DNA of 64,000 nt from Schmidtea polychroa (lineage: Eukaryota), in contig CM097885.1 of NCBI GenBank assembly GCA_044892525.1, forward strand, positions 36,148,001 through 36,212,000. The letters run 5' to 3'. The translations under genes were made by a program, and so were the position numbers. Numbering within the stretch: the first letter of the stretch is position 1; each line of letters opens with the position of its first letter. Below are positions 1 to 45,331 of the stretch, one piece after another. Under the pieces are notes generated by a model. The model worked only from the letters and a program-made list of their open reading frames with translations, made no database searches and was not told the DNA's origin.

Positions 1-1230
1 ATTGCACACATGGTGCTCTCATTGCTGACTATCCTTGAAACAGCCAACAATAGCTTGCAGGGTCAAGCAATAGACCTTTCTTCAGCATGTGATGTTATGG
101 ATGCCGTCATAGAGCGCATTCGCAGCCTACGCAATGAAGAGGAATTCCAAGTTCTTTTTGGGAAATTCGAAGGTCAAATGGATATGGAACAGACACCAAA
201 AAGAAGAAGAACTCAGATGAACACAAAATTAGACAACTTCATTGTTTCGGATCTGTGGGACAGCCAGAACACCAGACCTTGCCTATCAGATGCGCATATC
301 GCCAGATGTATTACGAAGTCGTTGATAGGACTCTGCAGGAACTAACAAAACGCTTCGGTGTCACCAACAGAAGCCTTTATAAGTCTCTTGCATGTTTGAA
401 GACTGATTACGCAAACTTTTTGAATATTGAGGATCTAAAGACTTTAGCGACACTGTGTGGCGTGGACCTAAGCGAAACCCAACATGAATTTGAAACTGCA
501 AAGGTTTTCCTATTGAAGAGAGCCAGTACTGTGACAAACGTTCATCAGTTAGTGCAAGAATTGTACTCATACCGAGATGCTTTTCCATCTGTCTATCGTC
601 TTGCAGCTTCTGCACTGACAATCGGTGCTTCAGCTGCCACATGTGAGGCGACTTTCAGTACTTTATCTCGTGTCTTAACTCCCTTTCGTACGTCGATGAG
701 CCATTCTCGTAAAGCCAACCTTGTATTGCTCTCATTTGAAAGTGACATCAGTAATAACATCAAATCTGATGAGTTTCTTCGGCGGTTTCATGAAATGAAA
801 AATCGTTGACTGCAGCTATTTTGAGTCATGTCAATATCTCACACACGTAATTTCTTTTTTCTGGATCTAGTTCCTATGTAATTTCTATTGCACTCACCTT
901 TAGTTTTCAAATCTGTGTGACTGTGTGTTCCGTCTTTGTATGTCCAATTGTCCGTCGTGCAAATACATGCAGCTATTTGTTTTTTGTGTTTGTTCCTAAA
1001 AAATGTGCGAAAATCATTTCCTATATACTAGTATATGCAATTATGTAGCAAAATAATGCTCAGACAAAATGTCGATTTTGCTTTCCTTTTTTTAAATTGA
1101 ACATTTCGGAGTGCAAAGTGTGAGTAGTGACTAGTCTGTTTTCATAAAATACTTAGTTTACACGAGAATTACTGGCCCCTTTAATGAGAGTCTGGGCCCC
1201 CCCGTCAAAAGGTGTCACGGTACGGGGCTG
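1..1230 (+). mobile_element. Right part of a hAT DNA transposon
   Basis: GC content is higher than the flank. The transposase remnant is followed by a GC-rich terminus ...GTCACGGTACGGGGCTG ending at 1230 (CAG-type TIR). The left end lies outside the window. Confidence 0.7.
10..824 (+). pseudogene. hAT transposase C-terminal part (ZMYM1-like, hAT dimerization domain), frameshifted
   Basis: Overlapping ORFs 10-345 and 255-809 join through a frameshift. The motif FPSVYRLAASALTIGASAATCEATFSTLSRV is a hAT dimerization signature. The TGA at 807-809 interrupts an NR(R)LQLF* ending. Confidence 0.85.
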
Positions 1231-5500: not shown

Positions 5501-8500
5501 GAAGATTATTTAAGAAGACGGAAAGAATTGAAGTCAAAAATACGAGACAACCAAGAGCACCACTAATAACGGAAGAGACAAAAGTTATATAAGTTATATA
5601 TTGTATTACAATTTAAAACAATATAGTGATAATTTAAGCCTTTCGCTGCGAATAATGTATTTAATGAAAAAATTTTCGACTATGATAGTCCTTGTCAATC
5701 TCTTGGAATTTAGCAACCTTCTTCCCGAACATACATTTCGATCTTTCTTTTATTTCCTTTTCTTACTTCTCATTGGTTAAAAATACTACTTTCCTTTTTC
5801 TGAATTTTTTTAAATATTTTTTTTTAAATTAAAATTAAAATTAAATATCCCTTTAAAATTTAAAATTTAAAATTCAAAATGAAACACCAACCAAAATTTT
5901 TAAAGTTTCTCTTATTAGCCCCTAGAAACCCACTTTAATAAAATATTTTAAAATATTTATAAAACAAAGCTTCCAATAACTATTTATATACGCGATTTAA
6001 ATATTTTAATAAATGTGTCAATTTTGACTTTTAATTCCTATCTTTTGAAAGCATATTTCTTAAATTTCTATATTATTTTAATTATTACTTTTTTATAATT
6101 TTTTCATATTTTTTATATACTATCAGTTATTCTCAAGGTCAATGACAACAGATCAAATTGATGATTTCACTGATTCCTTCTTTAGTGTTGATTGTTGGCT
6201 GTCTATTTATAATGAGAATTGCTTATTTGAATCTGACATTTATTTTGGATGTTTCCATTGGCTACGATTTAGATTGAATCGATTTCAATGTAAAAGTGTT
6301 AAAGTAGGTTTCTAGGGGTTAATTATAGAAGCTATAAAAATTTAAAATTTCGGTTCGTGTTTCATTTTGAATTTTAAATTTTAAAGGATATTTAATTTTA
6401 AATAACATTTTTTAAAAAATTCAGAAAAAGAAATGTAGATCATTATATTATATTTTTAACCAATGATAAGTAAGAAAAAGGAAATAAAAGGAAGATCGAG
6501 TTGTATGTTCGGGAAGAAGATTGCTAAATTCCAGGAGATTGACAAGGACTATCATAGTCGAAAATTTTTTCATTAAATACATTCGCAGCAAAAGGCTTAA
6601 ATTATCACTTTATTGTTTTAAATTGTAATACAATATATAACTTATATAACTTTATTATTTTAAATAATAAATGCTGCTACCAAGAAATCATCACTTTGTA
6701 TTACAATTTAATTATTATATTTTTACGAGTACAAGTCGTACGCTAAATTTATAGACAAAAGGTTTTGGAAAAATACTATTTCTGAAAATATAGGTCATTT
6801 TTAATTAGTATTAGTTTTTTTAGATTATTACAATTAGCAAGAAACTCTTTATTAACTCTTAATTAGCTAACATCTTTATAGTTCTGAGGAACATTGACAA
6901 TTTCTGAATCGCATTTTTTTGTTTGCAGCGTATAAACGTCACAAGATAATTTATTTCAAAAAAATTGGAAAAAAAGTTCGACTTATACTCGTAAAAATAC
7001 GGCACCATTTCCTTGATTCCGATGATGATCTAAATTTTAATCATAGTTTTTGAAATCTTTTTCTAAATTTTTTCCTAATAAATTTTGATGGGCTATTATT
7101 ATCTATATATATTATTGGAAATAATATTATAAATGTAAAAATAAATTAGTATAATACGACCTACCATTATTAGAGAAAGTCGTTGATTTGCTTTCTCTGA
7201 ATGCTTCATATTTAAAATTATTCAGAGTAACTTTTGCAGATCCAAATTTATACGTAAGAATTGAGCAAGTATATCCATTTTTGTTTTGCGTTTTACAATT
7301 ATCATCAATAGAGTTGGTAGCAATGCTTATTTTTCCTGAAATATGATTGAAATAAATTGGGCGAAGTGATTTAAATTTACAAAGTGGTAATTTGTATGCC
7401 AATATTTCTTAAATAGCTTGACAAAAGAAAGACAAAATACATTTATCATTTTCAAAATAACGGAATCCGGGTAACGTTATACACACACAAATACCTGTTT
7501 GCATCGAATAAAAGCATTTACTATAAAAACTGAGAAAGTTGTAAAAAAATTAATTTAACACACAAACATATATAATAGACACAACATATAATAAAATATG
7601 CATATACAATTTTGATATGTAAAATATTGCATGAAATAAAAGCATTTTAAAACTTCATTATTCAGAAAATTTTAAAAAAAATGTAGGATAAAATTTTGAA
7701 GCCAAATTTGGAGGAATTCATTTTAAGTCTTACAGAAAAAGACGAAATAACTTCGAAAGATTTATTATTATAATTATTATAAATTTAATATTTGTTAAAG
7801 AATTTCAGATCCTTCTGTTTAAATGCTGTCTTTTGCAAAGATGAAGACAATGTAAGATTTATTCTTGAAATTATAAATAATTTTAAGATTTTATATTATT
7901 TAAAATATTTCTTTTCAAACTCTACCTTTTTGCGAAAATGAAGAAATGACAACCATTTCAAATATTCAACCAGTTCATTCTACTTCCTTCGATTTCAGGG
8001 GAAAATCGTAAATTTTAATAACTTAATTTAAAAAAATAATATTCTGATAAAATTTAGAACATGACAAAATCCGAAGATTACTAGACTTTGGAAGATTACT
8101 CGGAATCACAAAAAACAATCATTTTCAGATACGAAAGAATTTTTAGAAATTTCAAAAGAAAACTAGGTCTTAAATGTCTTAAATATATATATTTGGTGTT
8201 TTACTTTCTTTCTCAAAATTGGCGAATCATCTGTAATTGCTATACACATCAACCTGTATTATTGATGTTTTCATTCCATGCTAACAGGTATAAATATCCC
8301 GGAGTCACCAAAAATTTTAAAAAAACGCATATATTTCATGCAAATTTAAAGGGTTAAAGATTATAACAGGTTAATAAAATATCAAAAATCAGGTTATTTT
8401 TTGAATTAAACAGCGGCGTAAAATTTGGGTAACATCGATCCTTTCAAAGGCCCATTCCAAATTTGTCTCTAATATCGCTGGAAAAAAACTATAAAATATA

Positions 8501-13200: not shown

Positions 13201-16200
13201 CCTTATTTTGTTTTTCTGGAAATTGAAATTCCACCTTCATTTGTACTTCTTAATTAACAATGACCTAATTTCTTGTTTGTTTCCTTTTATTTGATTTATC
13301 TTTCTCATTTTTAATTTTTTTTTACTTTTGTTTTCTTTTCTGAGTTCATGACGATCTTCCCCCAGGTAATTTTATTTATTTATTTATAAATTGTTTATTT
13401 AGGTATCCTCAACAAATATATTGTATAATATTTAGATACAATTATAAATAAAATTGATATAATTTTGGATTTTTATAAAAAAAATAATATTAATTACTTG
13501 TGGGCATTCCTGATTTTCATTTCCAAAAGAGTTATTAACAACATTATACACCTTCACTTTCACCTTGTAAATGTTCAACAGTATGTCATTGGATATGTTA
13601 AATTGCATCTTAGAATTGCATTGATAAAAGCTGTTGGAATTTGATAAAGTGAAATTGGTGTATGAAATGTTTGTGAAAATGCCTAAATGATTGTAGTCAA
13701 TGAAAATTTTAATTATTACAATATAGAAAATATAATTTTGTTTATATTTGTTACATGTAGTGAAATATAAAATTTACAACTTCAATTAGTTATTTTATCT
13801 ATACATTTGATATGGATAACAACATTGGTGTCAGAAACATGACTGATGAGAACATCCATATAAAAGTTCCTCAATTTTTCAACAATCGCAAACTATGGTT
13901 TGACCAAGCGACATTCGAAACCAACAATATCAGAAGTGAGAAAACAAGATATTTCCAAATGCTCACAAGCTTACCGCTTTTTATACTGGATGGACAATTG
14001 GAATCATCTATCCCACACCTGGAGTTTTATTATACAATTCTACTTGAATCTGCGATTAAACATTCGATAAAATCAGTATTTGAAGCAGCTTCGCAGCTAT
14101 TTCAAAATCTAATTTTAGGAGACCTAAAACTAACTCAATGATTTCGGTAAATGAAGCCAAACTTCGCAATATTGGAGTCCGACACGGATTTCAAAACGAG
14201 CAATAATCTGAGACATAAATCTTATACTTATACACATCCAGCATCTGTTAATAACAACCAATGGTGACATTGACGATTTAGTAAACACAGTCGATATCCA
14301 CACATCTTTACAAGGTAGTCAAAATTTCAAAATTTCAGAAGCCCAGATTTTAGATGATAAGAGGAAGTTTCTTCAATCAAAATTAAATGCATTAAAGAAG
14401 TTATATACAGACTCAAATAGTGGTTATGTTTGTAATTTTTTAAAAAAGCAATGGAACTACACGTCCTTGAGGGGATAACAGACTCCTTAATTCTGTCACA
14501 AAGGTAAATAAATATTCGTTTCTGAGAATCTACAACATTCTTGATCAGATAAGTAACAGCAGAATCTTCTCGACAATAGATCTAGAAAGGCTTACCATCA
14601 AATCCCGATTTGCAAAAACTATTGCTTGTTTGTATGATCATTTTATTAAAGATACTGCGTGAAAAGTGTTTATTTCTTGAAACCTTTAACCATGAAACAT
14701 TAAAAATCAGCACACATGTAAGTTTGTGTGTTTATTAGGGTTATGACTTTTTATCAGCCCCATGCTGCTGTACTGTAGTTTGATGAACATTTACGTAAAA
14801 AGCACGAAATGAACTATTATTTGCATATCTTTTCAAAAATGTTCACCCCGCCATTGAAAAATCGATTTTGACATAAGTACTACTATGTATTCAAATGTAT
14901 TTACAATGTCATAGTCATGTAATACAATAAATTTTTAATCTAACAATGACTCAGACCGTTGACCTTGCTCTTGCTTGTTGCACAGAAGGAATCGAAGGTG
15001 CAATTTGTCTTTATTTTTGCATGATGAATAAATTTCATCCATTACTTTGATTGCGCGCTCTGCGCATTGATTACTTCTGGGTATCTGTAGTATGGATGGC
15101 TCTCAATTCCAGTGATTTTTCAAAGAGCTTAAAGCCTTTTTGTATGGATTTAGTATTTAAGCCAAGTTATTAAAGTCGTTTTCGTTGTACAGTTGGTCTG
15201 TAAACCAATGGTCTGCCCAGCCATACGATATAAATCGACATACTCTCTGCAGAATTGTCCTTGTTGAAGGAATTAAAATGAAGGCCAGGATCGCTAGTAT
15301 AGCTCTGGAGTTCCACCTCGCATTGCTGATGTTGGGTATTTTCTGAAACTTGACCAATGAAAAATGTCCCTTTTCCTCAAAAAATCGGAACACTCAAGTG
15401 AGATGAAACAAAAATTTTATATCATCTCTCCAGCCTGATGTTTCGAGAATTAATTCTGTTCCCGTTATCAAACTGTGTTTTCAGTTGTTCGTACTCATTC
15501 AACAGTTGAGATATAAATGGATATTCGATGTTTGGCGATTGTGTTTTACTTCCAAGTTCTTCATCCATCACTAAACGGATGATTCTATCTAATACATGGT
15601 GTTGACGACTGATAAACTGAGGTTTGTTGATGCGTTTCTCTGTGAACATTCGTTGCAATATTATAACACCATTCTTTTTTCCAGTGTTAACGCTGGTGGT
15701 ATCTGAAACAATCATCTGTATTGAATTCCATAGGTGAAATTCATCGAGGACTGTAGAAATTCCTTCAGCAATAGTTAAAGCCATGCCATCTACCAAGCCA
15801 AGAACATTCAATTTGATTTCTCTTCTTTCATTTTTAAGGACAACCACTTGATAATCCATTCTGTCGATTTGCTTGCCATCAAAGTGTAAGGACCAACTTT
15901 CCATATGCAACTTTTCAATCATTTCTTCCTTCAGCTTAATTGCCTCTTTGATTGTTGACTTGTAAATAGCTGATTGACATGGAGTTGGGATGTCAATGCC
16001 TTCACGAGCCAATTGCTTGCATATGTTAGCAGCTTTGTTTGTTGATACTTTTGAGGTGGTCACCATCTTGTTTGAAATTTTGCTTTTTTGATGTTTTATG
16101 CTTGGTATAGGAGTTGTCTCATCTTCTTTTTCATTGTTTTCATATTCACTGTCGTCAGCCTCAGAATCAGAATCACTAAAACCAGGATAGTAAGATGATG

Positions 16201-19200
16201 AGTTGGATGACTCATTAGAAAGTTTTTGTCTTTTAGAGGGATGGATCGTTTCTTTACTGGCCGCTTGACCTGTAGAGTATCCCACTGTTCCTTTGCTTTC
16301 CACTTGGAGATGGTACAATCGCGTGTCCTCGGAAGATAACCATGTTCCATCCACTTTAGTAATATCAAAAATTTCACCAAGGGGTTTGTAGCTTCCCCGC
16401 TTGACACATTCATCATAATATTTCAGTATTTTATCAAGCTTTGCTCGTATAACCTGATCAGACACGTGAGGAAAATTCAGTTTATTCTTCCACAATTTGG
16501 TGACTTCTTTGGAAATTTCCGCTATTCGCTCCTTTCTTTCTTTGATTTTTGGTCCAAAGAAATTGTAGCGTCCCAAAATTTGCTTTTGGAGAGGCATTCT
16601 GCACTTTCTTCCAGTGAATATTCTTCCAAAGGGACCGTTCTTCTTCTTTTATGAGTCTTTAAATTTTACCAGATTATTGGTCCAGACATCCTTATTCTTC
16701 TGAATGCTACTATTGCTAGGCTTGTACGACGACATGTGTTGCTTCTGTAATAACTATAAAATTAGATGAGCAGCTATATATTGATTCTATATATTGAGCT
16801 ATAAAGTGTTCTAGAATGTTCTAAAGTCTTCTAAAATATTCTGTTATTTTCCAAAATGTTCTAAAGTTCTAAACACTTCTAATCTATACAAGTTTTAAAT
16901 GATTTACAGGAAAGTCACACGTATTAGCAGTAACAAGATTAAATAAATGACAAAACGTAATTTGAATTGCGGGGTGACCTTTTTTACAACCGAGATGACT
17001 TGAACATGTTTTTTTTAATAAAAGTTCATCGATTTATGACACAGGAAATTAATTTTTTTTAAAAAGTCAAAAAGTCATAACCCTAGTGTTTATGATATAA
17101 AGTTATTGATTTTTTTGAAAATGCTTTTTTGAGATGCTTTTATTCCATGCAAGCAGGAGTATCATGTGTATCTGCTAATAAATTTATAATACACAGGCAA
17201 GTTTGTATGTTTCTTATACACCAAAGCTCAATTGATAAGCGTTTTAATAACATTAAACAAGATCCAGTCAATCAAGGGCCATCTTGAAAAATTCGCTGTG
17301 TGTGAGTTACTAAATATAAAAAAATTCACAGAATAGCAAACGAGAGTGGTGCATTGTATTTATTACAAAAATAACGGGAGTGGGGTGTCCGACAAAATTA
17401 TACAAAGTGTCAGAACTAAAAATAATCAATTTATTACTTATACAAAAAAAATCACAAAATTGAATTAAATAACATTAAAAAACCTTTAAAAACAAAAACA
17501 AACCTTAATGCAAACAAGAAACAAAAGTAACTTATATATTTATTTTCCGAGCTTTTTCTTTGGCAAACTGATCAATAATATCCCTCGTATTTGAGTTATC
17601 AAATAAATCTCTCAATTGATAAAATACTTAAATCATTGAATTTTCTCTGTCCCAAAGAAGATAATTTTTTATTCTTTTTATTGCTGAAAATGATCTTTCG
17701 CCACTGCAGTTTGTAGATTAATTTTCAATACAAATTACGTTTAGATAAAAAATACACCCGGGGGCGAGTATACATAGGTGGTCAGCTCACATTTAAGTCG
17801 TCTATCGAAGTTTATAGCATCATAACTTATTGTAATCTCGTTTGTCATTCTAGCACATTTGAATATAAAAATCATATTTTAAGAAATTGTTTTAATTTAA
17901 AAATACGTGAAAACTAATAAAATGAAAAATGAATTTTTATAAAACTAATAACTAAATCACTAATAACTAATAATAAAAAAACACATACACCGCAAATAAA
18001 AATGGCCTCTCCAAAAGTCTTGCGCCCTTTGGGACGTGCTTTAATATGGTATAGAAATTTGAAAAAGTAAATTAAATTATTTTAATGACTATTTTAATAA
18101 GCAGCATCACTGCGGTACGTATCTTTCTCTGGTTAGTTTTTAAATATTTGGTTAATCTGCATGCGTTTCTAAGCAAATGGGCACATTGTTTAAAAGGCGC
18201 TTAATTGATTTATCTGCACTTTATACCTTAGTCATGATAAAATCTGGAACATCTAGAACATCTAGAACATTTGCACTTTGCTCTGTGTAAGTTTTCGCAT
18301 TTCACTAGACCAATTGGTAAATGGTGGGGATTATGAGTTGATCTAGTGCAGATACATCCATTTTTTTAAAGATTGATATAGAAAATTGTAAATTATTTAA
18401 AAAATTTTAAAAAATTTGCAATTTACTATTTATTTGTTTTTTTTAATTAGAAGAATCATTTAAAAATATATATTAAGAAGCCTTATAGTTACGGTGACCG
18501 TACGTCCTTTTTTTAAGAGGTCAGTAGTTTATTTAACTTCTATTTTCGTAATAAATGTTATAAACCTAGGAACTTTATAATGTATTTTTTTTATTTTCTT
18601 CAATATGTCCTTTATTTTTCCAAAAAATATGGTCACCGTAATTATAGTAACTATGTAAGAGTAAATGATACAATAAATACAACGAAGTTGTGATTTTTCA
18701 AAAGTCTTTCAGTTGTTACGGTAATGGGAAAATTACTGGATTGATTTAGTCAAAAATGTGATTTAAATGTAATAAGAATAAAAGTTTTAAATTTAATAAA
18801 TTTTTTTTAATATAATAAATTCAAAAAAATTAGATTTTTGATATAATTTCTCAATTTAATTTCTAAATTTAATTTCACTCCTAATGACTGAATATTGAGA
18901 AAGAAACAACAATATAACTTTTTTTTTCAATTTCACCACTGATTTTTTTCCATTGTATTTATTAAAAAACTTGAAGACTATAAATCAGTAAATATATCGA
19001 TGTTTTTGTTATATTTACTGATTTATAGTCTTAAAGTTTTTAATATAACTTTTCTTTAAATATATTAATAATAAAGAGTTTTTGCCCTGAAAGACATATA
19101 AGAACTTATTTTTATGTAATGTCTTATTTTTATGTACAAAAATCTACTTTTATTCAAATACAGCTATGTCGTCGTCTTCTGGAAAATCGTCATAACTTTC

Positions 19201-29285: not shown

Positions 29286-30635
29286 TAGGGTTTCCAAAAA
29301 AGTTTCATCCTTTTCCAAAAAAGTTTCATCCTTTCCCAAAAAAGTTTCATATTTTTCCACAAAATTTCAACCTCAAATGTAGAAATATTAATATTAATGA
29401 AAAACCAAAGATAAAATCAATGTTATTTTATGAATTCTTTAAATTTCCCGCCATTTTTGAGGATATAATAAAGCATATTTAAGCCCCAATGGCACCAAGA
29501 ACAAGACTCACTGACCATCTCAGAGAACTTATATGCGGCAAATACAATGCCTTAAAACCGATTGTTAAAATTGCCGAAGAGTTGGAATTGAATGTTAAAA
29601 CGGTTACAGCAGTCATTAAAATATATAAAGAAACTGGAAGAATAAAATCCGCAATCAAAAAATGCGGGAGAAAGAAGAAAATAACGCCGGAGCAGGTTGA
29701 TTTTATAAAAAACGAAATCAACGAGGAAGTTTCAATAACTTTAAACACCTTGAAATCCAAAATACTAGAAAAATTCAACGTTTCGTTATCAAAAAGTACA
29801 ATATCCAACGCAATTGAAGCTTTCCATTATAGCTTTAAGAGAGTTACATTGGTTCCTATGGCACGAAATACGACTGAGAATAAAGCAAAACGTTTTCAAT
29901 ACGCGTGTGATTTTACCCAAATATCGCATGAGAGTTTCATATTTTTGGATGAATGTGGAATTAGCTGCAGCTTACGCCGATCTTATGGCAGAAGTTTGAG
30001 GGGAACTTCCCAAGAAAAATTGTCAGAGCTATCAGAAGCCAAAATATTTCAATATCCGCCGCAATCACTCAGAATGGTATTTATTTTTTCGAATACATTT
30101 TTTCAGCTTACAACGGTGAAAAATATGGACTATTTATTGCTAATTTGTGTGAGAAGTTGAGATCTGAAGGAATTACGAACCGGTGTTTTGTGATGGATAA
30201 TGTTCCTTTCCACAAAATGATAGCCATAAGAGAATTGATCAATAGCGAAGGGCATAGTGTATTATTCTTGCCGTCTTATAGCCCGCAACTAAATCCAATT
30301 GAGAATTTATTCTCGAAGTGCAAAGGTCTGATCAAAGATGCAAACTGTGATACCAAAGAACAGCTTTTGGATGCAATTCGATCAGCAAGCAGTTTAATTA
30401 CGGAAGAGGATTGCGAAGGCTACTTTTCTAACATGCTTTCGTTTATTGGGAAAGCTTTTGCTGATGAAGATTTTTAAATAATTACCTTAATCGTGTACTT
30501 CCTTTTTAATTTATTTTAATATTTGTCGATGAAACGTTTTTAAAAAAGGATGAAACTTTTTTGGAAAAGGATGAAACTTTTTTGGAAAAGGATGAAACTT
30601 TTTTGGAAAAGGATGAAACTTTTCTGGAAACCCTG
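29286..30635 (+). mobile_element. Tc1/IS630-like DD34E transposon (1350 bp)
   Basis: TA TSDs and TIR (C/T)AGGGTTTCCA.AAAAGTTTCATCC, built from 21-bp repeats. Confidence 0.92.
29489..30477 (+). pseudogene. DD34E transposase with a single frameshift
   Basis: HTH N-terminus, FLDE, and MDNVPFHK...PSYSPQLNPIE with 34 residues between D and E. A -1 shift near 30010 joins ORF 29489-30160 to the frame of ORF 30145-30477. Confidence 0.88.
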
Positions 30636-38051: not shown

Positions 38052-40715
38052 CGAGAATTCTCTTAACAATTAACTGTATTAACAGAATACAAATAACTAA
38101 CATTCATTTTGTGGAAGAAATATCTTTTTAATATATATAAAATATAACTAGTTTTTTATTTCATTTATCTTAATGTATTTTTAAAGAATTTTTTCGCATG
38201 TCAACTTATGAAATTTATTTAATTTTTATAAAACTTCACTAAAAATAATATTTTAAAAAGCTATTAATATATTTCTGTAAAATAATACTTTCGATATTCT
38301 AATACATTTTATACGTATTTTTTATATTTTGATGTACGATTCAAAGAGAACCTCAGACTTTTTGTTGAAATATTTTGGGAAAACATAATTTATTTTACCA
38401 TTAAACTTTACTAAAAATATCTACTCTCAGAATAGGTGGTCAAATATGTCATTTTGAATTTATTCATTAAATTGATAATCAAGTTTTGCTGACAGATTGT
38501 CAACATTTTTTGATAGAAATGAATAAAAGCCCTTACATTTAATTATGAACATCTACTTTTGATATTCTACATTTAGATCTCGTTTATTCAGAATATACAT
38601 TTAGAATATACCTTTATTAATTTTTTTAAATTATTCAAAATTTTAAAATTATTCAAAAAGAAAAAAAATATTTAAAATTTTTTTTTATAACTTTATTTTC
38701 TTTGTAAATTATCTACAGGCTCTTTATGCATTTTATTCTGGCCGTTATTTTTTTAACTACTAAGAACAAGAAAATAAACTTTATTAGTAAAATTTATTAG
38801 TAAATTTGGTGTAAAAGTTAAAACAGAAAAACACAAGTTTGTAATATTTGATTTGAAGTTTCCGGAACACAGAATTAATGTGCGAAAACAAATATTTCTA
38901 CAATTAAATCCAAATTTTATTTAAAATTGCACAAAGATAACTAAGCAATTGACATTTTTGATAGATGACAAAACATATATTGCTTCAACACCGCAATGTG
39001 AGAAAGCATTTAATGAATTATGAGAAAATTAAAACTAATATATTCGAAATGCCAATAAAGATCAAACTTTCAAACGGTAAAATATTTCAAATGAAATGAC
39101 ACAATAATGAAATAATATTATTTAAAAAAACTAACCGTAAAAACATAATTTTTAAAAGTATATATCTCACTCTTACATTCTCTCAAAATTAAAATTTTAA
39201 TATGCTTGCTTAATCATATGAAATATTTAATACTACGCAAAAATCACCTAGTTAAGAAATTACTTTTAAAAGAATATTTTATTCATTTTTAAAAGAAATT
39301 TTAAAAATATTAATAAAATTGAAAATTTCCAAAATGTTAATTATAGTACTTCTGTGAGTTTTTGTGTGTATTGTGTGTGTATTGTATGTCTGAAACTGTC
39401 TAATATTTCATGTTTATTATTACATTATTATTATTATTATTCGATCCTAAAGAGATAAATACTTGAACTGTTATATCATAAAATAGATTTTTGAATATAC
39501 CAGATTTGGAATTATTTAACAAGAAGCATAATCATAAAATCAATAATATATTATTCTGATTTTAAATTGAACTAAATATTCAAGAGCTCTTCCAGCTATT
39601 TTTATTTTATTCGTGATTGCATATAAACTTTAGAAATTGCGCATTTTTTATTATAAAGATTAAAATTAAACGGTAATTTTATTATAATAAAGAAACTCTC
39701 ATATTTCCTGCAAATTTGAAAGTTGAGAACACGAAAATATTTACCGAAATTGACGGAATGTTGACGTGAAATCAAATCTGTCAAATAATTCACTTTAAGT
39801 GTACATAAAATCAAAATTAATATTCTATTAATAATAATTTTTTTCTTTATTTTTAAAATATTTTTTTCTTCGAGAAATAAATTTAAAAAAATTGCCGAAA
39901 GTTATTAATTAATTTAAAATTAAATAAATTTATTTATTTATTTTCATTTCTTAAAGATTAAAATTAATAATATAGAATTCAATTGCTTATTTAGTTACAA
40001 GGGCTAAAATTAGTGTTTTAAGTAAAAGAGTAACTGAACTAATAAAAATTAATATCAAGAGTGGAATATATAACAAAAGAGAAGTTGCACTGATGGGAAA
40101 GAATTAAACATAAGGGGTTTTGGAAATATTGAAATTAAATATGAAAAATAGATTATGTTGCGGGTAGCTACTCGGATGACCCCTTTTAGTGCAGCTTTCA
40201 GTCTAGAGGATGAATGCCCACATCGATTCCGCTCGTCCTTCGTTTTGTCATCGCCGAGCAGGACCCGCACATAACCTACATTCCAACATAGCACCCGTGA
40301 ATTGCTTCACGTTGGAACTGTGCTATGCCGGCGAGACGCCAAAAGCAGGTGAGCCAGCTCCTTCGGACTACTCCTTACTGAGGCCTCGACTTCCCAACCC
40401 TGACTGCCGATAGAAGGACTTACGTCTAATCATTCCATCACCCCATCGCAAGGTTCCTAGCTGGGGTTGCCAACTGACTAATGCTCCTCATTTTCTACGA
40501 CTCTCAATGTTATTCACCAATTTCAGATCGACTATTTTAAGATAAACAAAAACACATATATAGACGAGAATGGTTTATTGTCAGAATTATTATACAAGTA
40601 CATTGAACACTTAGATACTAAAATTCCTAAGAATAGGGAAAACACAAGGGTAAACAATGATGTCAGAAGATGTCCAGGTCTCTCTAGAAGATGAGGCCAG
40701 TTTACGGAGCAATTC

Positions 40716-41459
40716 TCATTTTTCCCACTCCGAGTCGGCGAGTAACTCGTTTAAATCAAAGAATTCGGCAGCGTTTTCTTCCCATGTTGCCCCGGCGGCG
40801 GAGATGACTCGCCCTGAGATTCCGGTCGTTAGATCGACTACTATTGGATTGCTGTTGCCGTCGACTGGGGTGACGGTTGATGGTAGAATCCGTTTGATGG
40901 AAACCCGCTCTCGTTGCTTTCGTTTTCGTTCGGCGCGCGACAGTTGCCGACGTTTAGGTTTTGAAGCTGTTGGGGTTTGCACTATTGAGGACGATGCGGT
41001 GTTTGGCTGCACTTTATTAGTTCCGGTGAATACAACGTCTGGACCACTGGGAGAGAGCTCGGTCTCCACGCACCCATGGCAGGACTTCCCGAGTGGAGAT
41101 GACGGCCCGCCCGAGATCTCGTGGTGCGCTGGAAAAAGATTACTGGCTTCATTAATTGGGATCTTTGCGATTCTCCTAGTGGTTGCTGCTTGGACGTATA
41201 ACTTGTGCAGCGCCTCCGACTGCTCCTTTATTAGGCTTCTCTGCGCCCGACTTTTGGAAATTAGCGCATCTCGACAGTGCTCGCTGCGGTGCAGCTTCTT
41301 CTGAGCCTCTTTCATCTGGGTAGGACTAAACCATGTCCCCTCTAACTCGTCTATTTTTCTTTTGTACTTTCCGATTTGGGCCTGCAGATCCTTGATGATT
41401 GAATTCTTGTCGGAACAAGAGAAACAAGGTCTGAGAATGGTCTTGGAATTGGGTAACAT
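40716..41459 (-). CDS. Uncharacterized LTR-embedded protein (247 aa) with CxxC, coiled coil, basic NLS-like tract, SIM-like motif and acidic tail
   Basis: Intact GC-rich ORF. The ATG lies 9 nt after a strong acceptor (tttccatcttttcttgcag|), and an AATAAA lies about 140 nt after the stop. Confidence 0.7.
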   Translation of the reverse strand: MLPNSKTILRPCFSCSDKNSIIKDLQAQIGKYKRKIDELEGTWFSPTQMKEAQKKLHRSEHCRDALISKSRAQRSLIKEQSEALHKLYVQAATTRRIAKIPINEASNLFPAHHEISGGPSSPLGKSCHGCVETELSPSGPDVVFTGTNKVQPNTASSSIVQTPTASKPKRRQLSRAERKRKQRERVSIKRILPSTVTPVDGNSNPIVVDLTTGISGRVISAAGATWEENAAEFFDLNELLADSEWEK

Positions 41460-43741
41460 TTTGGGTGACTGCAAGAAAAGATGGAAATGAACAATAAATC
41501 AAATCAATTAGAAGGTCGTCGTCTGGTCACATTTATATTTTACTGATCATAGTTGGTTTCATAGACATGAACGGGTGTATCAGCCAAAGAAATTATACTG
41601 CGCTATGGGTCCTCGTTCCCTTTGGGTCATTAAATATAAGAAAATAAATCAGTCAAGCACGATTTTGCACAAGTAAGGAGAAGTATTACTACTGGTGAGA
41701 GGAATTCTAGGTCGAGGAAACTACGGTTATCTAAATCGCTTGAAGTTAGTAATTAACGTTTGAAGAGAGTTGAATTACATTGCCGACTTTTCCTAACAAA
41801 TAGTTTCGATGAATGTATCCTGTACGTAGGTCGATTAATTTTAGATTAATTATTTAGGGTGAATAGAAATGCATAAATTATTCTTAATTAGTTCATTTAT
41901 GATGAACGGGAAGACATTATAAAAAATTTTTAATTATTTATTTATGATAGGCGACAAATTATTCAACATGAGATAATAACTAAATTAACCCTACTAAGTA
42001 GACAAAATCAGTCTGACAGTTGGCTATTAGTTCCGACCAGTGGGAATCTAATGACTGCGAGTGATTTAATTTGATAAGCCAAAAATTCCAGCTGACACGT
42101 CCGGTCTGGTTTGTTATGAGTACAAGTCGGTGTGAATCTACACACCGTGATTAGCTACTGTAGTGTGTCTGAAAACGGGTGACGCATGCAAGTTTTTATT
42201 TCTCATAGTTAATTCCACTCCTAATCACTAACTGGTGCCCTCAACTGTTTACATGCTGGCATGTTCTCTGGCTACTATCTCGATCAACCCACTGCACAGA
42301 TGCTCACATTTCCCTGCTCATGATGATGTCATACTAATTCTCCAGGAAATGCTGGAAAAATTATGATTCTCGGTATCGCAAGAGTTGGATATAATTTGCC
42401 CCCCAGGGGGAACTTCTCAACTCCTCAAATGCGGTTTATTGATCCGTTCCCGATATTTTGGAGATTTCCTACCCATCCTCGCTGGATTATCAACTCCATG
42501 AAACACGGGTAATTTATATTTACTAGGTAAGGATTATCATGTTAGATTGGTTTGTAGAAAAAAAAAATATATTTTTTTGACTCGATTTGATTTCGTTTTA
42601 CTCTTGAGATTATTTGGCACTAACCGGTTTATGTAATTAGAAAAATTTGTGGAAGTTAATTCCTTTATATAATTCTAAAATCAATTGAAGTAAATCATTT
42701 TATGCAATTCAAAAATAGTTGAAGTAACCCATTTGACGTAATTCAAAACTTTATGCGAGACGACTTGTTCATGGAATTCCAACGCTCATCCGAGACTACT
42801 TATTTTCTGTAATCCACTGCAGCTACATCTTTGAGAGAACACATAGACGAGGAAAATAATAGCACGGAAGGCCATAAAACACAGCAGGTATAAATTTCGA
42901 GTGAAACGTACGAACATCGAAGATATGTCACCTATAGCATTTGAACGACTCTCGATGAGCAACCTACATAGAGCTTTAGAACGATAGAGGAAATTTGGGC
43001 TTAGTAGAAACGATATCTTGAGACGATAGTGTGACACCCTCAATCACTGCGCGAATACATAAAAACTCTCTGATCGTTTCTTCCTACATCTCTATTTTCC
43101 ATCGCTATACGACTTCCAATTTACTGGCAACATTTTCCTATAGAATTTAGTCGCACCTTCAGCGACGGACCCGTGAGGAAGCTCCCACATTACGGCCCGA
43201 ATCAGCTGCGTGATTGAAATACCCTAGGCCCACCGGTGGAGCTCCCGAAGGCACCTCACACCATGACACTAGAGTATCTCAACGCCACGTTTCTCGAAAA
43301 TTTGAATGGCATTAAATAATAACTCATTAAAACAGTTCATAAAAGTCAATAATTCCTAGAAATCAATCATTCATAGCAAATCATTTATTGTTAAATACTA
43401 AATCGTTAAATTACACCAAGTATTCGAAATCAAACGAAAAGAAAACAAGTTCTTTAAATTAAAATTATAATTAAATCATACGCATAACTATTACTTTAAA
43501 ATTCAAATTATGAAATCAAAAGATCTTTACCGAGTGTTTAATAGAGGTATAGGCTGAGTCGAAAAGGGGTACTGTGTCGAAGTAATAAATGTTCGAAATT
43601 ATCTAGATTCAGCTGAAATTTCTTGGATTCCGGAATAGTCCTCGTGAGTTGCTGTGGATTGATTGTTTAATTGCGGTTTCGTCGTAGAATGGATCTATTG
43701 AGGTGGTTAGATTAACTGTGATTATTTTAAACTTTACTTAC

Positions 43742-43830
43742 CTATTGAGGTGGTTAGATTAACTGTAATTATTATGATTTTAATGCCTGCTTATATATTA
43801 ATTTTTTTGTTTGCGCGGACCAATCAGAAT
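43742..43830 (-). promoter_or_regulatory. Putative LTR core promoter and first-exon donor
   Basis: On the minus strand: ATTGG (CCAAT) near 43820, TATATAA near 43790-43797, an Inr-like CAGTT near 43765, then the donor AG|GTAAGT at 43742/43741. A 25-bp direct repeat spans this start region. Confidence 0.5.
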
Positions 43831-44159
43831 TGAGTACCGCTTAATTTTATTAATTTAATTTATTTTCCTTGTTTTAGAGTTATTTCTTCTTATTTTCTTT
43901 ATTAAAATTATGTTTTTATTTATTTTCCTTAATTTCCTTATTATTTATTATATTTTGCGTTATTTTCTGTCATTCTATTGTCCTATTTTAATTTTTCTTA
44001 TTTTTATATTTTTTTTTGTTTTAATTCTTATTTCTAATTATTGTTTTTCTTATGTTCTATTCTATTTTATTCGTCAATCTATTTATTTTATTTCTTATTT
44101 TTACTTTAGTTACATTCGACCTAATTTCCCAGCTACCCTTCGATTCAGCCCAACAATTA

Positions 44160-44735
44160 TAATTGCAAATCTTTACACTGCAAATGAAATTTACCCAGAA
44201 ATTATTTTAGGCATCGATATATTAAACGAAATGAACATCAGACTATTGGAATTACATAAATAGTTTATTAGGATAACGAACTATTACCGGAAATTTAGTA
44301 AAAACTATTCAAGTATGTCCCAACCTTTAGAAAAATAAAAATCATCTAAAGATAAGATTCAATGGTGTGATGAATGTGAAAACGTTTTTGACAAACATAA
44401 ATATCATATGGTCAATGCACCAATACTAACACATCCGAATTTTGGAAAAGAATTAATTCTTGATACAAATGCTAATTTCGACAACAAAGGTGGTATATTA
44501 TCACAAAGAAATAGTTTCAATAACGAAAACGTTATAGCTTATGGTTTTAAAAGTTTAAATACTCATGAGATTGGTTTATTACATAACAAGAAAAGAAATG
44601 TCTGTATTTCACTTCCACACTGATCACAAAGTTTAACATTCATGATGACAACAACGAAACCAATCACAACCCATTTTGAAAATATGATCAACTTTTCGAG
44701 TACTTTGAATATGAAACTAGAATATCGCAAAGATG
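44160..44735 (+). pseudogene. Decayed Gypsy pol (protease end and RNase H)
   Basis: EIILGIDIL, then APILTHPNFGKELILDTNAN...GGILSQ...VIAYG, then KPITTHF...LEYRK. The protease N-part (DGKELNIRGFGNIEIKY) lies left of the 4-kb LTR, near 40090-40150. Confidence 0.8.
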
Positions 44736-45331
44736 AATTACATTCCACTGGTGTTCCGGTCTTTTGCCCTGAGGCCTTATGGACTATATACTCAATACTT
44801 CGGTCCTTGGAAAATTCATAGAAAGTAATTCTTGAAAAATTCTTGGAAATAATTCTCGGACTTGGAAAAATTATAGACCTAGGAATTGGGAACCAACGCA
44901 AATATTCTTTGTATTTTTGCGAAACATGTAAAATAAAAAGTGGTGGGTATTTACAACAAGCGAGATAAATAATCATTATACATTTCCAAATCATTCTTTT
45001 CTTGTAAAAAATAAGTAAATCATTTACAGGGGAGCGTTGTTAGCAAATCAGATAAAATACATTTTTTATCATCATAGTTTTTCAAAGATTTATATGATTC
45101 TTGTAATAACATGTCATGATTTTTAGAATTTAAATTATAAATAATATCCATTCTTTTTACAGAATTTGGTTATAAAACAATCCATATAATCTTGATAAGA
45201 TATTTTCTTGCTTACACATATTTTTATTATTTTATTTCTATTCTCTTCGCTTTTAAAACATTTGAGAGAATATTTTTTTGCTCTAATATTAGCACAATCC
45301 ATTATGTAATTAACGGGTTTTTCATCTTTAA

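Follow-up and report, generated by a model that had tools for sequence, protein, structure and literature searches.

Long terminal repeats (LTRs) are generally taken as non-coding, and solo LTRs as inert beyond promoter activity. The locus described here raises the question of whether a solo LTR can hold a complete gene and, if so, what the encoded protein does. The window, a stretch of 64,000 nucleotides from Schmidtea polychroa (GCA_044892525.1, contig CM097885.1, positions 36,148,001 to 36,212,000, forward strand), had received a first-pass annotation that proposed in it a 4-kb solo LTR with its own spliced accessory gene. The evidence points to a solo LTR with a selected, likely spliced gene, whose product is read here, tentatively, as regulating the RNA of its own element in the manner of Rev and Rex. 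The features are listed in Table 1.

Table 1. Positions of the LTR features and neighbouring sequences within the window
Feature	Positions	Strand	Support
Solo LTR of Burro-type Gypsy element	40156..44155	- (element sense = minus)	paired LTRs with matching 4-bp TSDs in full elements
Left target-site duplication (TSD) ATTA	40152..40155	+	
Right target-site duplication ATTA	44156..44159	+	
Decayed Gypsy pol relic, target of the LTR insertion	44156..44740	+	RT_RNaseH_2 E=6e-12
CCAAT box, reads ATTGG on element strand	43820..43824	+	61/61 LTRs
TATA box	43791..43797	-	61/61 LTRs
Putative exon 1, TATA+31 to donor (repeat copy 1), 25 nt	43742..43766	-	
Putative mini-intron, 47 nt, GTAAGT..TAG	43695..43741	-	layout common to family 2
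Putative long intron, donor 1 to distal acceptor, 2273 nt, 44 ATGs within	41469..43741	-	conserved signals
AATAAA (pA1), likely R end	43384..43389	-	59/61; equivalent site in 6/7 family-2 LTRs
GC-rich two-hairpin RNA structure, candidate response element or packaging signal	43140..43300	-	z -3.1, covariation, covariance-model matches
247-codon ORF: coiled coil aa 12-91 (predicted parallel), GTW..P and SRxQR core (conserved), basic helix, acidic-hydrophobic tail aa 226-247	40716..41459	-	
AATAAA (pA2), 136 nt past stop, GT-rich tract after	40574..40579	-	61/61
Second conserved donor-like GTAAGT, 156 nt past pA2	40418..40423	-	58/61; GGTAAG in 7/7 family-2 LTRs
Strongly conserved block near LTR 3' end, 91-94% identity, folding not unusual	40256..40455	-	

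The LTR unit and its parent element

The interval is a solo LTR of exactly 4000 bp, which starts with TGTTG, ends with CAACA, is flanked by ATTA on both sides, contains no gag or pol and is found elsewhere as paired units around gag-pol; the first-pass annotation had described the unit in the same terms. The insertion had been placed in an old Gypsy protease, and the flank is indeed a decayed Gypsy pol relic, while the protease itself, which we take to be marked by an ILGxD-like motif, has no Pfam match. The family comprises at least 620 LTR copies, with exact-match counts of 620 LTR cores versus 49 junctions of LTR and primer site. Both termini are present in 61 of 75 loci looked at, and these 61 LTRs, on which the signal counts are based, include 38 solo LTRs with TSD, 13 5' LTRs, 9 3' LTRs and one LTR without TSD.

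In full elements, which measure ~28-30 kb, the two LTRs have matching TSDs, are separated by 20-22 kb and enclose a primer-binding-site-like motif and ORFs for gag, env-like, PR, RT, RH, IN, ankyrin and TRAF/MATH. The solo LTR derives from a Burro-type giant Gypsy element, as had been suggested: the full elements have the size of this type (~30 kb) and LTRs several kb long, their env lies between gag and pol, and both ankyrin and MATH/TRAF are present. RING is also matched among the scanned ORFs of element copies, and BIR or BCL2 had no match in these ORFs, which come from broken copies. In a second family (family 2) the gene also occurs, in LTRs of 4.2 kb that belong to a complete gag-env-pol-TRAF element and have the same layout.

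A gene under purifying selection

The 247-codon ORF is a real gene under purifying selection. Among 43 intact ORFs, dN/dS is 0.118 (771 distant pairs), the likelihood differs from that with omega fixed at 1 by a 2dlnL of about 434, and pN/pS is 0.24 for shared variants against 0.60 for private ones (p=2e-7). Of 41 indel events in the ORF (1.1 per kb), 39 are multiples of three, whereas in the intron, with 26 events per kb, 220 of 1921 are; related copies enter both counts more than once. The window copy differs by one private substitution, at residue 69, in a column otherwise invariant among the 43 sequences. The protein of family 2 has 36-37% amino acid identity and pN far below pS, and conservation of the protein extends to 20-37% identity. 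The ORF is intact in 55/61 LTRs overall, a proportion inflated by the choice of most copies by ORF similarity, and in 16/21 copies picked by DNA.

That the ORF is a random or eroding frame of a non-coding LTR, as the five broken ORFs among the 21 DNA-picked copies and the absence of Pfam, PDB and Foldseek matches might suggest, has a negligible probability: it is ruled out by the dN/dS of 0.12, the frame-preserving indels and the distant conservation, and for each of the remaining five frames 0-3 of the 43 copies stay open. The accessory gene proposed at 41459-40716 and its expected constraint across copies are thus both confirmed; at the DNA level other copies were found, and the ORF across them is neither generally disrupted nor neutrally evolving.

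An antisense ORF of 215 aa was taken as a shadow frame. Broken ORFs are more frequent in copies that lack the donor (3/4 vs 2/17, p=0.03), an excess that was not used because the breaks are unshared and age is confounded. Pairs of 5' and 3' LTRs have too few differences, and one pair is mis-registered.

Promoter, splice and poly(A) signals

The signals around the gene are conserved beyond chance: beside the CCAAT box, the TATA box and the downstream AATAAA, the donor GTAAGT is kept in 52/61 LTRs, and a YAG lies exactly 9 nt before the ATG in 59/61. The distal acceptor is a pyrimidine tract followed by CAG, which ends at 41469 on the minus strand. The TATA box (43797), donor (43741), acceptor (41469), ORF (41459-40716) and AATAAA (40579) are where they had been annotated on the minus strand, except that the CCAAT box lies on the plus strand. 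These signals make expression of the gene through splicing likely. A pattern search for LTR copies without the long intron gave 5 matches, none of them element-like, against 2 in the control. Of the further AATAAA hexamers in the window copy, two recur in just 11/61 and 12/61 LTRs and a third in 52/61. The conserved pA1 and a covarying RNA structure, both inside the long intron, indicate that the gene is probably located in U5; recombination mapping did not locate the R/U5 border.

Four features were absent from the first-pass annotation, namely a putative self-restoring mini-intron, a second poly(A) signal, a structured intronic RNA and a second donor. Together they would indicate regulation at the RNA level.

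Exon-1 repeat and putative mini-intron

A second, much nearer candidate acceptor lies 47 nt from the donor at 43741 and would delimit a mini-intron whose 3' 25 nt (43719-43695) are identical to exon 1. This second repeat copy exactly matches the first exon of the same LTR in 53 of the 61 LTRs scored, although the sequence exists in 22 versions, and it ends with YAG in all 61; the length from GT to AG is 45-52 nt across LTRs. Immediately 5' of copy 2 there is a hypervariable seam, at which the three preceding bases differ in 36, 40 and 22% of 133 within-group pairs, against 0, 8 and 0% before copy 1. A G precedes copy 2 in 7/61 LTRs and copy 1 in 0/61 (p=0.013, kin not being independent). The repeat is also present in 6/6 family-2 LTRs, where it starts at TATA+27-30.

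Such a repeat is the footprint expected if a mini-intron is spliced from the 5' end of the genomic RNA and restored at strand transfer, an origin that the sequence pattern strongly suggests. An ordinary tandem duplication, homogenised by template slippage and free of any splicing, would account for the precise loss of one segment seen in 9 LTRs, since slippage between repeats gives the same product, and partial extra copies also occur. It is unlikely all the same, because the repeat spans about TATA+27-31 to the donor in two families of unrelated sequence, always ends with YAG, and has its variable seam before copy 2 and not before copy 1. The repeat with its putative mini-intron is a new finding of the present analysis.

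Structured RNA inside the putative long intron

The two-hairpin segment folds with a z of -3.1, and none of 200 shuffles folds as well; a scan with 130-nt windows gave only z -1.6. In the family alignment 99.3% of cells are paired and 3/50 pairs are compensatory, and with diverged lineages included the latter rise to 11/32. Counted on pairs with two-sided change, the structure does not exceed shuffles (396/500 reach its value). The covariance model matches lineages of 43-54% identity with E from 2e-7 to 7e-4. Family 2 has an RNA structure of its own (9/38 pairs compensatory), which is not found by the family-1 model, and an Rfam search returned nothing.

Co-evolution of hairpin and protein, raised by distance correlations, was rejected on inspection; the hairpin is not co-inherited with the basic half of the protein through recombination, as one counter-example (L029) illustrates.

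The encoded protein

The protein is predicted to form a dimer through a parallel coiled coil and has, in addition, a basic helix, which is conserved, and an acidic tail. The homodimer model scores 0.54, with 0.00 for the best control, a contact agreement between runs of at least 92% and pLDDT of at least 78; of the solved pairs 21/30 reach the mark for calling a dimer and of the single chains 0/23, with 17/29 and 0/30 in a eukaryote set. The basic helix is placed at aa 167-185, and helix prediction gives 175-190. The basic tract, about 75 disordered residues past the coiled coil, varies little or not at all among the 43 copies and recurs, with at least 9/17 K/R, in 6/10 remote relatives. The tail helix, acidic and hydrophobic, is conserved (pN/pS 0.13) and has a D(L/I)(D/N)E(L/M)LA-type motif common to both families; it cannot be recognised in remote relatives, where the C-terminal ends may have been joined wrongly.

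All the protein motifs named earlier are present in the window copy, with uneven conservation beyond it. The SUMO-interaction-like (SIM-like) motif is VVDL or VIDL in 28/43 family-1 copies and altered in 15/43, is absent from family 2, appears as IYIDL in 2/10 remote relatives and lies in the region of weakest constraint of the protein (pN/pS 0.45). A zinc site as a core feature was dropped because remote relatives lack the cysteine pairs. pN is above pS in no region of the protein.

The searches made place the protein in a new family that matches no known one. Pfam gave weak coiled-coil matches only, apart from a REV match for one of 19 sequences, a relative (E=0.0013, 19.1 bits, cut-off 22), whose score arginine richness alone could produce. 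PDB sequences and Foldseek against PDB and viral structures gave no match, a single-sequence search of 5.8 billion proteins gave 0/670 candidates (lengths 135-433 only), and the ESM Atlas best score of 0.82 is uninformative. A structural check suggested earlier thus yielded a predicted dimer and no known family. Across Pfam, PDB and Foldseek, neither a DNA-binding fold nor homology to Tat/Tax/Tas was found. By-eye inspection of family 1 gave no convincing leucine-rich export signal.

Proposed mechanism and alternative functions

Very probably, transcription starts at TATA+31 and one donor serves two acceptors. Use of the near acceptor would remove the 47-nt mini-intron and give genomic RNA that retains the structured element, while use of the far one would remove 2.3 kb and give a short protein mRNA, which would end at pA2, before the primer-binding site. 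During minus-strand transfer, most likely, the copied spliced 5' end pairs with the unspliced 3' R, so that the intron is restored and its 3' half is overwritten by exon 1. The R end is probably pA1, which would therefore leave the gene in a U5 of ~3.2 kb. Less certainly, the protein, as a dimer, may contact with its basic helix the structured RNA that genomic RNA alone retains, so that genomic RNA passes the two poly(A) sites of the 5' LTR, escapes distal splicing and exits the nucleus. As far as its sequence can be read, the solo LTR holds every cis part for making the protein in trans.

The main alternative is that the protein activates transcription from the LTR promoter in trans, either on DNA or host factors like Tas and Tax or on nascent RNA like Tat; the basic tract would then direct it to the nucleus or contact nucleic acid, and the acidic tail would be its activation domain. 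The conserved tail, with its motif in both families, and the predicted dimer agree with it, the tail suits an activation domain as well as it suits the Rev-like reading, and an early self-contained gene would fit a positive-feedback activator such as Tas of foamy viruses (PMC12789967, available text). This function is nevertheless somewhat doubtful, since a basic tract so far past the coiled coil is not a bZIP layout, no DNA-binding fold was found, the tail is not evident in the remote relatives, and the intronic RNA structure and two 5'-LTR poly(A) sites are left unexplained.

A role as anti-silencing factor or antagonist of a host pathway, such as the SUMO, piRNA or apoptosis machinery, would be in keeping with the RING, TRAF/MATH and ankyrin cargo of Burro elements (PMC6431247), with the rise of Burro RNA upon SMEDWI-2 loss (PMC8532177), both as given in the available text, and with the SIM-like motif of 28/43 copies and two remote relatives. 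The altered or missing motif in the other copies and in family 2, its weak constraint and the lack of any region with pN above pS, as a host-conflict interface might show, make it quite improbable. Packaging signals are usually near the 5' end of genomic RNA, where the hairpin would also sit, and a long coiled coil with a basic tract would suit an RNA chaperone; the protein could then be a structural or packaging helper, and the hairpin an unrelated packaging or dimerisation signal bound by Gag. The chance of this is slight, because in retroviruses it is the regulatory and not the structural genes that have a spliced transcript to themselves, complete with a poly(A) signal (PMC12789967, in part). 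The Rev-like regulator, tentative as it is, is retained as the working interpretation.

Significance and comparison with known systems

In their LTRs, these abundant planarian retroelements maintain a new protein family under selection, and each recombination that deletes the element leaves a complete candidate gene, as the gene is inside the LTR. In the exon-1 repeat, a splice event and a transcription start would have left their trace in DNA, and the repeat provides a searchable signature for other LTR elements. If the mechanism is true, packaging of a spliced genome need not cost a retroelement its intron. A standing problem also becomes directly testable, namely how full-length RNA is made from a 30-kb element with a multi-kb ATG-rich leader and two poly(A) signals. 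More speculatively, and with some doubt, Burro might be a complex retrovirus-like Gypsy, with a genomic RNA spliced at its 5' end whose mini-intron is rebuilt each time it is reverse-transcribed, a choice of acceptor that switches between genomic RNA and a U5-encoded regulator, and an independently arisen Rev-like pair of protein and RNA that hundreds of solo LTRs could supply in trans.

Rev folds as a helical hairpin, unlike the parallel coiled coil predicted here, and no sequence or fold homology to Rev, Rex, Rem or Rec was found in Pfam, PDB or Foldseek save the one sub-threshold REV match. The protein also differs from these regulators by its 247 aa, its long predicted coiled coil, its invertebrate Gypsy host and a genomic RNA that would itself be spliced. 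It resembles them, with their RRE-type elements, as a small regulator with a putative spliced mRNA, a basic helical tract, predicted oligomerisation and a structured RNA in the intron that would be removed from its own mRNA (PMC12789967, in part).

Burro and GYPSM1 elements of dugesiid planarians are about 30 kb long, with multi-kb LTRs, the order gag-env-PR-RT-RH-IN-ankyrin and cargo that includes RING, MATH/TRAF, ankyrin, BIR and BCL2-like motifs (PMC6431247, available text). The present element is like them in size, LTRs, domain order (env between gag and pol included), and RING and MATH/TRAF cargo, with TRAF/MATH here as a separate downstream ORF. The available part of that description covers internal domains and accessory ORFs and mentions neither gene nor intron nor RNA structure within the LTR, whereas here a gene, a putative intron and an RNA structure lie inside the LTR (PMC6431247). 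In a record-level literature search, neither a gene nor a mini-intron was described for Burro LTRs; an annotation of the ORF may exist in Repbase or in figures and supplements of Grohme 2018 and Lee 2026.

In the foamy-virus LTR the major splice donor is in R, upstream of the poly(A) signal, and the donor here likewise precedes the likely R signal, so that U1 binding could suppress 5'-LTR polyadenylation; that suppression is reported, in the available text, without a mini-intron, whereas here the donor would be joined to a near acceptor and regained when the RNA is reverse-transcribed (PMC3694450). The HTLV-1 LTR intron also has donor and acceptor within the LTR, although the available part of its report describes no exon-1 duplication, restoration mechanism or sense LTR gene (bioRxiv 10.1101/2023.01.28.526022). 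Comparable in layout are the LTR-internal coding sequences of MMTV, with sag and rem exon 2 in U3, and of HIV, with nef overlapping U3, which are expressed from spliced RNA, as is likely here (PMC12789967, in part). Those genes are U3 sequences that precede the main start site, whereas the planarian ORF lies downstream of the TATA box, likely in U5, and, unlike them, would have its promoter, both exons and poly(A) signal all in one LTR (PMC12789967).

The ORF as a gene under selection

Judged from the sequence, the LTR-resident gene noticed in the first-pass annotation is real, and the 247-codon ORF is a gene. Its best 150 protein matches have 78-100% identity, and near-full-length ORFs (43 distinct) are found at 44 of 51 loci. 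The reading as a maintained accessory gene is upheld by these copies, whose mean dS is 0.84 and mean dN 0.10, a ratio of 0.118 (771 pairs with dS >0.25). A codon model with one parameter, intended to be omega, fixed at 1 fits 217 log units worse; the copies recombine, which weakens the tree-based selection test and leaves the pairwise test unaffected. The pN/pS of the ORF is 0.24 for shared and 0.60 for private variants, and constraint peaks at residues 31-100 (0.05) and at both ends (0.13). The intron has indels 23-fold more often than the ORF, where 39 of 41 keep the frame. The ORF is intact in 55 of 61 LTRs overall and in 16 of the 21 picked by DNA alone, so selection acts during replication, and selection on solo copies is not implied. 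The window copy carries a single private substitution (residue 69), which may impair its protein.

The LTR, its signals and its copies

The 4000-bp unit, with its TGTTG/CAACA ends and ATTA duplication, lies at the coordinates claimed for it, and all its minus-strand signals are located where the first-pass annotation placed them; the CCAAT box is present at its site but inverted relative to the gene. The proposed insertion into an old Gypsy element is borne out in part, by a right flank that is a decayed Gypsy pol relic. The GC content of the unit, 32-44%, is above that of its surroundings.

Features of the solo LTR and of the window, with the number of LTRs (of 61) that keep each signal
Feature	Window position	LTRs
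Solo LTR	40156..44155 (-)	
CCAAT box		61
TATA box		61
Putative exon 1	43742..43766 (-)	
Donor 1, GTAAGT	43741	52
Putative mini-intron, 47 nt	43695..43741	
AATAAA (first)	43389	59
GC-rich block	43300-43140	
AATAAA (third, in long intron)	41942-41937 (-)	52
Putative long intron, 2273 nt	43741 to 41469	
YAG 9 nt upstream of ATG		59
ORF	40716..41459 (-)	
AATAAA (second)	40579	61
Second donor	40423	58
Two other AATAAA sites		11 and 12
Long nested inverted arms, 87-95% complementary, MITE- or TIR-like	5556-6678	
ORF resembling, by eye, a Tc1/mariner-type transposase relic	29489-30160 (+)	
ORF resembling, by eye, a hAT-type transposase relic	10-809 (+)	
ORF resembling, by eye, another transposase relic	15422-16597 (-)	

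The 40 candidates scored, of 3249, hold at least 54 genome matches to the unit, many covering its whole length at 77-99%, and the nearest sibling of the window copy is about 1% different. The paired copies sought in the genome occur in four regions, 16-22 kb apart with long ORFs between them; in two such elements the TSDs match (ATAC, GTAT) and a primer-site-like motif, which we take to resemble a tRNA-Pro site, follows the 5' copy. The identification as a solo LTR is thereby sustained. Both termini are present at 61 of 75 examined loci, comprising 38 solo LTRs with TSD, 13 5' LTRs, 9 3' LTRs and one LTR without TSD. Exact genome counts are 620 for a 20-nt LTR core and 49 for the LTR-primer-site junction (controls 0). 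At G000:C2:114565963 and 48 other sites, the primer-site-like motif begins 7 nt past the LTR end, which is a long spacer.

Internal ORFs match RING, CCHC, Monjiviricetes fusion protein, aspartyl protease, RT, RNase H, integrase, ankyrin and TRAF/MATH domains, a layout that is that of the Burro elements already known (PMC6431247) and that points to a dugesiid planarian as the probable host. Tandem arrays of three Burro-type LTRs, spaced by about 20-26 kb, are found at G000:C1:72646518, 72672911 and 72699304, on C158 and at C4:46238708-46291092. TRAF-like RING-containing ORFs stand on both sides of one full element (L015:353-961 (-), L018:4611-5228 (+)), as if it had inserted into another TRAF-carrying element. 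An AG lies 1-2 nt upstream of the ATG in internal RING, TRAF and coiled-coil ORFs (L015:6304, L017:2097, L017:3678), which suggests further spliced or trans-spliced mRNAs.

The long intron holds 44 ATGs, so scanning could presumably reach the ORF only once it is spliced out. The GC-rich block has a folding z of -3.1, with 99.3% of cells paired and few compensatory events; with diverged lineages added, 11 of 32 pairs are compensatory, and its covariance model matches lineages at 43-54% protein identity. The structure has no match in Rfam.

Exon-1 repeat and putative mini-intron

A 47-nt GT..AG segment ends in a second copy of the 25 nt that run from TATA+31 to the donor. The repeat is scorable in 64 of 74 LTRs (nine lack the segment and one has a partial copy), or 61 once each insertion is counted by one LTR only (three removed). 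Copies 1 and 2 match exactly in 53 of the 61 and come in 22 versions; the segment is 45-52 nt long and ends in YAG in all 61. Where two LTRs have exon 1 in common (133 pairs), copy 2 is preceded by three bases that differ in 36, 40 and 22% of comparisons, against 0, 8 and 0% for those preceding copy 1 and 0-6% at the intron start. The three scored 5'/3' LTR pairs agree at the seam before copy 2. A G precedes copy 2 in 7/61 and copy 1 in 0/61 (p=0.013, kin not being independent).

Slippage alone may have produced the repeat, but it leaves the repeat borders and the seam position unexplained. In the simplest reading, packaged RNA would begin with exon 1 spliced directly to what follows copy 2; the DNA copy of this spliced 5' end would anneal at copy 2 of the unspliced 3' R, overwriting it. 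End-of-template errors in reverse transcription include a cap-derived G, and strand transfer would leave such errors before the intron is copied back. Cap-proximal donors are preferred in splicing, and such a preference would account for splicing of the 5' copy alone. In four loci (L071, L074, L088, L086) and their kin the mini-intron AG is directly followed by another GTAA, just past copy 2, so excising the mini-intron would recreate a donor-like site in the manner of recursive splicing.

The protein and its relatives

With a mean pLDDT of 57, AlphaFold predicts helices at 15-42 and 46-97, then a disordered stretch, a basic helix at 175-190 and a short helix in the tail. The dimer model of residues 8-116 is an in-register parallel coiled coil with a score of 0.54 (best control 0.00), contact agreement of at least 92% and pLDDT of at least 78; the mark is reached by 21/30 solved pairs and 0/23 single chains (eukaryotes, 17/29 and 0/30). 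Family, structure and fold searches with the protein gave no match. Searched with a profile, 1.84 billion proteins gave 10 relatives (P0001-P0010, E 4e-9 to 3e-4), which share W43, P46, L66, R71, Q73 and R74. All are unnamed database gene models, and 8 of the 10 have unrelated host domains; these are most probably gene predictions that were wrongly joined across LTR copies, real host-LTR chimeric transcripts being possible.

Two of these relatives, used as queries, led to a second LTR family in the same genome (36-37% identity), whose ORF sits in paired 4.2-kb LTRs, 99.9-100% identical within pairs, around gag, env-like, RT, RH, IN, ankyrin and TRAF ORFs. This ORF has pN of 0.08-0.18 versus pS of 0.47-0.88. 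The protein family is old. The second family has the same signal order, with the acceptor directly 5' of the ATG; its downstream poly(A) signal is mostly non-canonical, and the exon-1 repeat is present in 6/6. The family-1 structure model has no match in it; at the equivalent position it has a covarying structure of its own. In family 1 the basic tract hardly varies, and family 2 and 6/10 remote relatives also have it. The SIM-like motif and the cysteines are not universal.

Possible functions and comparison with known systems

One donor with two acceptors would yield genomic RNA from the near acceptor and the mRNA of a regulator from the far one. Genomic RNA would have to leave a strong acceptor unused and read past two poly(A) signals. 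The first-pass annotation proposed a transactivator, which is rather doubtful, or an anti-silencing factor, which is improbable. Somewhat more likely, though still tentative, is a Rev/Rex-like regulator of element RNA: a dimeric basic protein that would be made only from RNA without the structured element suits such feedback. Against this, homology is lacking, an export signal was not identified in the protein, the hairpin and the basic half of the protein are not co-inherited, and the hairpin is possibly a packaging signal.

In the literature consulted, LTR-borne genes are described as U3 features of retroviruses, such as sag, rem and nef (PMC12789967). Among the records that a literature search listed, none describes a gene or a self-restoring intron for Burro LTRs; the primary Burro descriptions may annotate the ORF. 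The donor ahead of the first poly(A) signal resembles that of foamy viruses (PMC3694450), and the second donor, after the second AATAAA, could play a comparable part. The dimeric basic protein fits Rev/Rex-type feedback as outlined in PMC12789967, and it may work like Rev without being a member of the Rev family.
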